In this document: in pieces, positions 27,884 to 28,789 of the stretch
How the letters are laid out: every line of letters begins with the position of its first letter
Position numbering within the stretch: position 1 is the first letter of the stretch
From: a virus
Taxonomy: Duplodnaviria; Heunggongvirae; Uroviricota; Caudoviricetes
IMG/VR virus record: IMGVR_UViG_2874920711_000002
Location: 1 to 42,995 of that record
Direction: 5' to 3' (one strand)
DNA: 42,995 nucleotides
Notes under the pieces: generated by a model
The model's input: the letters and a program-made list of their open reading frames with translations, nothing else
What the model was told of the DNA's origin: nothing
Databases searched by the model: none
Program-made: the position numbers and the translations under genes

Positions 27884-28315
27884 AAAAAGAACAAATGGTA
27901 GTGTCCGCTATTGCCAGTACACCTCAGAAAAGGAATTAGTTAAAGCGCTTCTTAACAGAACTGCCGCCGATTTTTCATCATATCCACTGACAGATGACCT
28001 TGCGGACCTTCCTGAATTAATTGCAGCGTCCGCCATTAAGCTTACTGAAGAGATTTACCCTCCTCAAAAATCTTCACAAAATTCCTGCGAGTAACTTCAA
28101 TGCAATAATCGTAAAACGCCGCAAACTGCTCATCGCGGCGTTTTTTTTCATCTTCAGAAGGAATCAGCACCGACAATTTTTTCTCCAGTTTTTCAATGGC
28201 GATTCAATATCATCTTTTTCTGACCGCAATGCCGTCGGTGGCGTCTTCAGAGAACCAGTAATTCTTCCCGGTAGCTTTCCTTTGTAGGTTATCCACACAT
28301 TCTGCGCCTCTAAAA

Positions 28316-28570
28316 TTATGGGCGCTTTTCCGGCGACTGCTCATCCCCTTCACATAACCCGGCAGCAACATCCAGGAATACCTGTCTGATTCTCATTCTG
28401 GCCGCTGCCTCATAAAACTCCAGCGCGGCACCTTCAACACGGTCCAGCGAGATGTCCAGGTCAAAAATTTCACCGTCAAAGCGTTTTTTGTCCCGTAACG
28501 CTAAAGTTACCGCAACTTTATTCTCAAAATTGCGGATCCCTTTCACAATCAGTTCATAGTTTTGTGTCAT
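28316..28570 (-). CDS. Hypothetical small protein between holin and endolysin
   Basis: In-frame Met ([11 protein letters not shown]…) three codons after the expected holin end; in the sequence as given it is fused to the holin ORF. Confidence 0.4.
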
Positions 28571-28579
28571 TGAATTACT

Positions 28580-28789
28580 CTCCCGCGCAGCCTTACGCTT
28601 GTCTTCTCTTATTTTGAAATACAGGTTAGTCAGATATGTCAGCAGCCCAAACAGCAGACTCCCCAGCACGCCTATTGCCGCCCACTGAGACGGGGAAACC
28701 CTGTCCAGCAACTGCAGGAACCAGTAGCCCGTTCCCACCGCTGACGTGGTGTATGACACACCTGTTGTGATTTTTTCCATCTGGTCCAT
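28580..28789 (-). CDS. S: Class II pinholin (S21-like) with dual-start motif
   Basis: [70 protein letters not shown] matches phage-21 S; Met1 and Met4 give the holin/antiholin dual start. Confidence 0.7.

Follow-up and report, generated by a model that had tools for sequence, protein, structure and literature searches.

An apparent pinholin–YdfR fusion in a lambdoid prophage very probably reflects under-called G and C homopolymers in the source assembly

Introduction

Does the pinholin gene of this lambdoid prophage really continue into the gene that follows it? The window analysed here, the whole stretch of 42,995 nucleotides from a virus of the class Caudoviricetes, contains on its minus strand a 157-residue reading frame (28316..28789) in which an S21-type holin is joined without a stop to a second domain, followed by shorter frame fragments and an IS600 element. 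The initial annotation had ascribed the joining to the loss of one G, and had regarded the second domain as a separate small gene resembling ydfR of the Qin prophage of E. coli K-12. The comparison with related prophages reported here indicates that assembly errors, in which G and C homopolymers were under-called by one base in an ordinary lambdoid lysis cassette, very probably account both for the fusion and for the break-up of the YdfR-family gene.

Results and Discussion

The fused reading frame and the holin gene

The fused frame began at an ATG whose first base is 28789 and ended at a stop at 28316–28318 (minus strand), so that the pinholin was indeed open in the letters into an 84-residue extension, as initially described. 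Two distinct domains were recognized in it by Pfam. Residues 5–67 matched PF04971 (P21 holin S) with a score of 109 bits, where the cut-off is 26, spanning profile positions 1–63 of 64. Residues 74–149 matched PF07041 (DUF1327/YdfR) at 121 bits, and the 84-residue piece taken by itself scored 124 bits, where the cut-off is 25. Judged by these profile scores, chance is excluded by a wide margin for both domains. The holin also matched PHROG holin families, and its N-terminus, MDQMEK, placed methionine at codons 1 and 4, which was read from the sequence as a putative dual start.

The S21-type class II holin (pinholin) gene was located at 28575..28789 (minus strand), with its ATG at 28787–28789. 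Its TAA at 28575–28577 was out of frame because one G was missing. The letters at the junction were ...AAG GCT GCG CGG GAG AGT AAT TCA ATG..., in which the GGG run occupied 28582–28584 (minus strand) and the last ATG, at 28568–28570, was the internal methionine that starts the extension. When this run was compared with the two relatives with matching flanks, they contained GGGG where the window contained GGG, and the missing base joined the holin to the ydfR-like gene. In the GGGG version, the holin ended at ...KAARGE and TAA, and a TTCA spacer preceded the next ATG. Among 5,426 complete genomes of E. coli, 4,135 contained a match to the stretch. In the four relatives inspected there, the holin was a separate protein of 68–71 residues with this same end, followed by TAA and TTCA, after which an ATG opened a gene annotated as 'YdfR family protein'. 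A stop at the site of the GGG run was present in everything compared, namely six relative loci (five independent assemblies) and K-12 Qin. The alignment with relatives therefore bore out the proposal that one missing G removed the holin TAA. The extension was likewise confirmed as a separate gene with its own ATG. A second GGG run, located 5' of the holin ATG in non-coding sequence (28791..28793, minus strand), was also GGGG in relatives.

With one G added, the holin was a protein of 71 residues, identical to protein P0030, which was found on 274 contigs. Most likely, the actual holin gene terminates at ...KAARGE-TAA. A Shine-Dalgarno-like motif, GGAG, was located 9 nt 5' of the ydfR-like ATG, within the last holin codons, and overlapped the G run. 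This GGAG inside the holin end would act as the ribosome-binding site from which the YdfR-family gene is translated separately from its own ATG.

The YdfR-family gene

The YdfR-family gene (DUF1327, phrog_2091) extended over 28042..28570 (minus strand) and encoded 176 residues once repaired. In the window it was distributed over three frames (28316–28570, 28164–28298, and 28042–28176), and two short C runs accounted for the breaks. The CCC run at 28320..28322 (minus strand), which was CCCC in relatives, created the premature stop at 28316–28318 that ended the 84-residue extension, and the CC run at 28198..28199 (minus strand), which was CCC in relatives, formed the second break. In the closest relative, NZ_CP065613.1 (locus L001; 99.6% identical), a single 176-residue frame ran through to the tail ...FAAFYDYCIEVTRRNFVKIFEEGKSLQ. 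Therefore, the 'further fragmented ORF' of the initial annotation was not an additional gene but the C-terminal half of this YdfR-family gene. The pieces that it described, ending in ...FAAFYDYCIEVTRRNFVKIFEEGKSLQ, were present on the minus strand (28164..28298 and 28042..28176), and their end was located at 28042 rather than near 27990.

After addition of two C, the YdfR-family protein was identical to protein P0014. It matched PF07041 at 136 bits against a cut-off of 25, and it matched phrog_2091 over its full length with an E value of 1.6e-103. The holin and the YdfR-family protein together, after three added bases, showed 0 amino-acid differences from P0030 and P0014 over 247 codons. The 176-residue form is often labelled an incomplete pseudogene by RefSeq, yet it was an open frame on 463 contigs, those that carry P0014. 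The suggested likeness to YdfR, in a gene that separates holin from lysozyme just as ydfR does in K-12 Qin, held up: besides the PF07041 match, the protein shared 63% identity with K-12 YdfR. The small frames thus matched known lysis-cassette accessory proteins, those of the YdfR family, an outcome that the initial annotation had itself named as one that would refute its reading.

Proteins of the YdfR family were composed of a conserved, nearly invariant N-terminal domain of about 77–113 residues and interchangeable tails. Lengths of 103, 104, 114, 116, 176, 183, 211, and 268 residues were observed, with at least five different C-terminal tails, and the invariant columns of the family alignment were mostly located in residues 1–77. 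In two-hybrid and co-purification experiments, K-12 YdfR has been reported to bind RNase E in its N-terminal (catalytic) half; the contact involved residues 1–72 of YdfR, and RNA co-purified with YdfR, which may bind RNA (PMC13232886). The literature search yielded no functional data for the family beyond this report. By analogy, the best available guess is that the YdfR-family protein would be a cytoplasmic late protein acting on host RNA decay. An AlphaFold2 model of the 176-residue protein, built from a 20-sequence alignment, had a mean pLDDT of 43.6 and showed a weak beta-beta-beta-alpha N-terminal domain alone, and its quality was too low for a fold search. In the PDB, a profile search gave no match at E ≤ 1 that could serve as a solved relative, and NCBIfam and PADLOC gave no match for this protein or for the 88-residue antisense protein described below.

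IS600 and the antisense gene

An IS600 element (IS3 family) of 1263 bp was located at 26664..27926 (plus strand), with orfA at 26728–27030 and orfB from 27066. The region delimited in the initial annotation started at 27927, which is the first base after this element. Over 1264 bp, the element shared 99.6–99.7% identity with three copies in locus L005 of NZ_CP065613.1 that are annotated as 'IS3-like element IS600 family transposase'. A 3-bp target-site duplication, GAA, flanked it at 26661–26663 and 27927–27929, and the uninterrupted sequence of the empty site was present in a relative without IS600 at this position (L001 of NZ_CP065613.1). Because of the duplication and the empty site, the insertion looks like a genuine transposition on sequence grounds. 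The inverted-repeat scan found no terminal inverted repeats of IS600, whose repeats are imperfect, and the viral_contigs search turned up no other assembly with this IS600 junction. A second, partial left end of IS600 (329 bp) was observed near the end of the window at 41793–42121.

The orfB frame was broken by a G4-to-G3 change at about 27829 and continued out of the element to 28094. When one G was added, the normal end of OrfB, ...RLGNISPAAFREKYHQMAA, was restored.

The element interrupted a small gene of the opposite strand to the cassette, of which the 5' part was located at 26562..26663 and the 3' part at 27927..28094 (both plus strand). About 53 nt of the 3' part lay within the 3' end of the YdfR-family gene. 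When intact, this antisense gene encoded 88 residues and belonged to phrog_2572 (E value of 8e-53). It was an intact frame in L001 at 4811..5077 (minus strand), in a cluster of 205 members, and was conserved between the YdfR-family gene and lysozyme in Escherichia phage PhiR5_1 and Stx2 phage 86. Pfam gave no match for the 88-residue protein; one phage record carried the label DUF1823. If the prophage is induced, the IS600 between the YdfR-family gene and lysozyme would probably cut lysozyme and Rz off from late transcription.

Lysozyme and the surroundings of the cassette

On the minus strand, the cassette was ordered as pinholin (71 residues), a 4-nt spacer, the YdfR-family gene, the antisense gene, lysozyme, and Rz. 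The lysozyme gene (PF00959; 25922..26454, minus strand) was frameshifted at a C run near 26156. Addition of one C gave a 177-residue protein collinear with the lysozyme of L001, and the CCC near 26156 should probably be read as CCCC. The N-terminus of the lysozyme, MNVKIRYGLSAAVLALIAIGAPAP, was hydrophobic and signal-anchor-like, and the motif E-8-D-5-T was present. At the lysozyme/Rz boundary, positions 25516–25952 were without a match in the prophage of the closest relative, and another prophage type (L017) matched 24945–26663 at 97.6%. This pattern of matches indicates a putative mosaic joint inside the lysis cassette at 25516–25952.

The Q gene (30471–31292) and an ORF with DUF1737 were located upstream of the cassette. 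Between Q and the holin, on the opposite strand, an IraM/PmrD-like anti-adapter gene (29545–29880, plus strand) was intact in the window. Downstream of Q, a tRNA with anticodon CAT (30252–30327, minus strand) was assigned as Met by ARAGORN and as tRNA-Ile (lysidine type) by the annotation of the relative. Phage-borne tRNAs at the position downstream of Q are common in Stx-like prophages.

Single-base losses in G and C runs across the window

In order to place the missing bases of the cassette in context, the whole 43-kb window was aligned with the same prophage in NZ_CP065613.1 (L005), whose segments were 95–99.7% identical. In G/C runs of at least three bases, the window differed from L005 by 48 one-base deletions and 2 insertions (binomial p = 2e-12). 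Counted per run, shortening affected 4 of 525 runs of three (0.8%), 24 of 137 runs of four (17.5%), 13 of 27 runs of five (48%), and all three runs of six. A/T runs of four to eight bases were shortened in 0 of 399 cases, which differed from the G/C runs with a Fisher p value of 1.6e-23. Loss sites included 1078, 1428, 1715, 25106, 26156, 27829, 28200, 28323, 28585, and 28794, and further sites were located at 29921, 29929, 30040, 30086, 31895, 32215, 32305, 32340, and 32642. The initial annotation had noted a loss at the holin locus alone; the losses were spread over the window, ran in one direction, and depended on run length.

As a consequence of these G/C-run losses, about half of the genes in the window look like pseudogenes or fusions. 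Of 43 coding sequences intact in the relative, 23 were out of frame in the window, including those of ipaH, IS600 orfB, and lysozyme. The ipaH-type gene for a type III secretion effector (849–2597, plus strand; ipaHd in the relative) had three C-run losses, two of C6 to C5 and one of C5 to C4, and its frameshifts probably represent the same artefact rather than a pseudogene.

All six relative loci compared, which come from five independent assemblies (CP065613.1, CP026836.1, JAALAC010000003.1, CP026875.1, and AAKB02000001.1), had the longer run at 28585, 28323, and 28200. At 28794 it was present in the four relative loci with closely alignable upstream sequence. The error was assigned to the window and not to the relative, because the repair was exact, other assemblies agreed with the relative, and the fused form was a one-off. 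Over-calling of G/C runs in the relative was considered separately and was rejected, since the relative's versions leave the reading frames intact and match those of four other assemblies. The true run lengths proposed for the source strain are those judged from relatives.

The same lesions could be read as genuine mutations of a decaying Shigella prophage, in which slippage at G/C runs inactivated many genes, among them lysozyme and the YdfR-family gene, as well as the holin stop. Shigella prophages do decay, G/C runs are real slippage sites, and the same G-run fusion occurs sporadically in other assemblies. The IS600 insertions also fit an IS-rich, ipaH-carrying genome, a type in which pseudogenes are known to build up. 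However, decay would also shorten some A/T runs of four or more bases, all of which were untouched here, whereas 24% of G/C runs of the same minimum length were hit. It would not give so lopsided a ratio of deletions to insertions, nor shorten every run of six. It would also add nonsense and missense changes, whereas the repaired holin and YdfR-family protein were 100% identical to widespread proteins. Furthermore, multicopy IS600 was itself struck at a G4, and such a loss rate, extrapolated genome-wide, would break thousands of genes. Genuine decay is therefore an improbable account of these lesions.

Source assembly

The exact fused protein was found on a single contig, CP026824.1 (GCA_002949875.1), a chromosome of 4.97 Mb. 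Under the assembly-error reading, the consensus of CP026824.1 would systematically drop one base in G and C homopolymers. One-base deletions in G/C homopolymers are a typical residual error of early PacBio consensus. CP026836.1 and CP026875.1, two sister assemblies that share its batch of accessions, were intact at the holin and YdfR sites, and therefore the error rate was specific to CP026824.1 and did not extend to the whole batch. Accessions CP026774 to CP026786 and CP026878 have been ascribed to Kim et al. 2018, as part of their PacBio Shigella set (PMC7819885). Since CP026824 lies within the range CP026774–CP026878, CP026824.1 probably belongs to this PacBio-only set. The literature search on PacBio homopolymer errors in Shigella yielded nothing useful. 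Any finding on CP026824.1 that is based on a frameshift, fusion, or truncation is to be discounted until it has been checked against reads.

Fused forms in other assemblies

When 5.8 billion protein clusters were searched, about a dozen contained both the holin and DUF1327, each on 1–3 contigs, whereas the single unfused holin and YdfR-family forms were each found on hundreds of contigs. The KAARESNSM junction was common to several of the fused clusters, some of which came from short-read collections. Other fused clusters contained additional frame errors or in-frame deletions across the junction. Taken by sequence, the fused clusters fit sporadic errors or one-off mutations rather than a conserved allele. 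In P0048, P0050, P0053, and P0070, the fusion was formed by an in-frame deletion that joined the holin at ...KIREDK or KIKEDK to YdfR at ...KKRFDGE, and not through the G run. In these four proteins, the short common DK(K)R motif may favour either deletion or misassembly.

A genuine G4-to-G3 mutation at the holin junction can occur, as the KAARESNSM junction in a few other assemblies suggests. One further reading builds on this, with the G4 tract as a real slippage hot spot and a minority of natural prophages, possibly including this one, encoding a pinholin with a C-terminal, RNase E-binding YdfR domain. It is very unlikely. If it were true, the pinholin would anchor the YdfR domain in the inner membrane, the location of RNase E. 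A rival reading, in which slippage or programmed frameshifting makes the G run a functional switch that yields a regulated pinholin with a C-terminal YdfR domain, can hardly be credited: although the run coincides with the final codons of the holin as well as with the ydfR-like gene's ribosome-binding site, and although several independent fused proteins have the same junction, no fused form was conserved (1–3 contigs each against hundreds for unfused forms), GAGAGG takes the place of the run in K-12 Qin, which shows that the run is not a conserved feature, four bases are short for phase variation, and the fused frame in the window was itself truncated by the next error.

Assembly error in an ordinary cassette thus remains the preferred reading. 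The role of YdfR-family proteins in lysis cassettes has been made testable by the 2026 report that K-12 YdfR binds RNase E (PMC13232886), although this is not specific to the window.

Comparison with known systems

As in other long-read-only bacterial assemblies, the window showed one-directional, run-length-dependent single-base deletions that produced false frameshifts and false fusions. Unlike long-read-only homopolymer errors in general, the losses in the window were confined to G/C runs, and its platform was inferred from the accession range.

When the repaired cassette was compared with that of phage 21, the holin matched the P21 S Pfam family over its full length, and the ...KAARGE end was present in the relatives. 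The window holin was S21-like in its dual start at Met1 and Met4, and the lysozyme was likewise R21-like, with an N-terminal hydrophobic segment and the E-8-D-5-T motif. The residues between the two starts were D-Q in the window holin, not K-S, and its antiholin form is putative. Phage 21 has S next to R, whereas two extra genes separated them in the window cassette. The initial annotation's statement that S and R normally adjoin each other in lambdoid phages was correct for lambda and phage 21, but the inspected phage annotations contained a YdfR-family gene between them.

In K-12 Qin, the gene order (essQ - ydfR - rrrQ - rzpQ/rzoQ) and the junction (TAA, a 4-nt spacer, and the ydfR ATG) were the same as in the window cassette. 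K-12 YdfR and the 176-residue protein both matched PF07041 and were closest over the first ~77 residues. K-12 YdfR has 103 residues and a different short tail, whereas the window gene encodes 176 residues with the tail ...FAAFYDYCIEVTRRNFVKIFEEGKSLQ. In addition, ydfR abuts rrrQ in Qin, whereas the antisense small gene and about 320 nt precede lysozyme in the window cassette, and Qin has GAGAGG where the window cassette has GGGGAGAG.

The same layout was found in Stx2-converting phage 86 (NC_008464) and PhiR5_1 (PV340545), both inducible phages, in which holin S, a YdfR-family/DUF1327 gene, an antisense ORF, and lysozyme R followed one another. Their YdfR-family proteins, of 268 residues in phage 86 and 211 residues in PhiR5_1, had C-terminal modules other than that of the window, and their cassettes were free of IS600 and of frame breaks. 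The stretch was matched by 361 phage records, and those with inspected annotation had a YdfR-family gene between S and R. The layout of holin, ydfR, antisense ORF, and lysozyme is already known and annotated in many genomes and phages.
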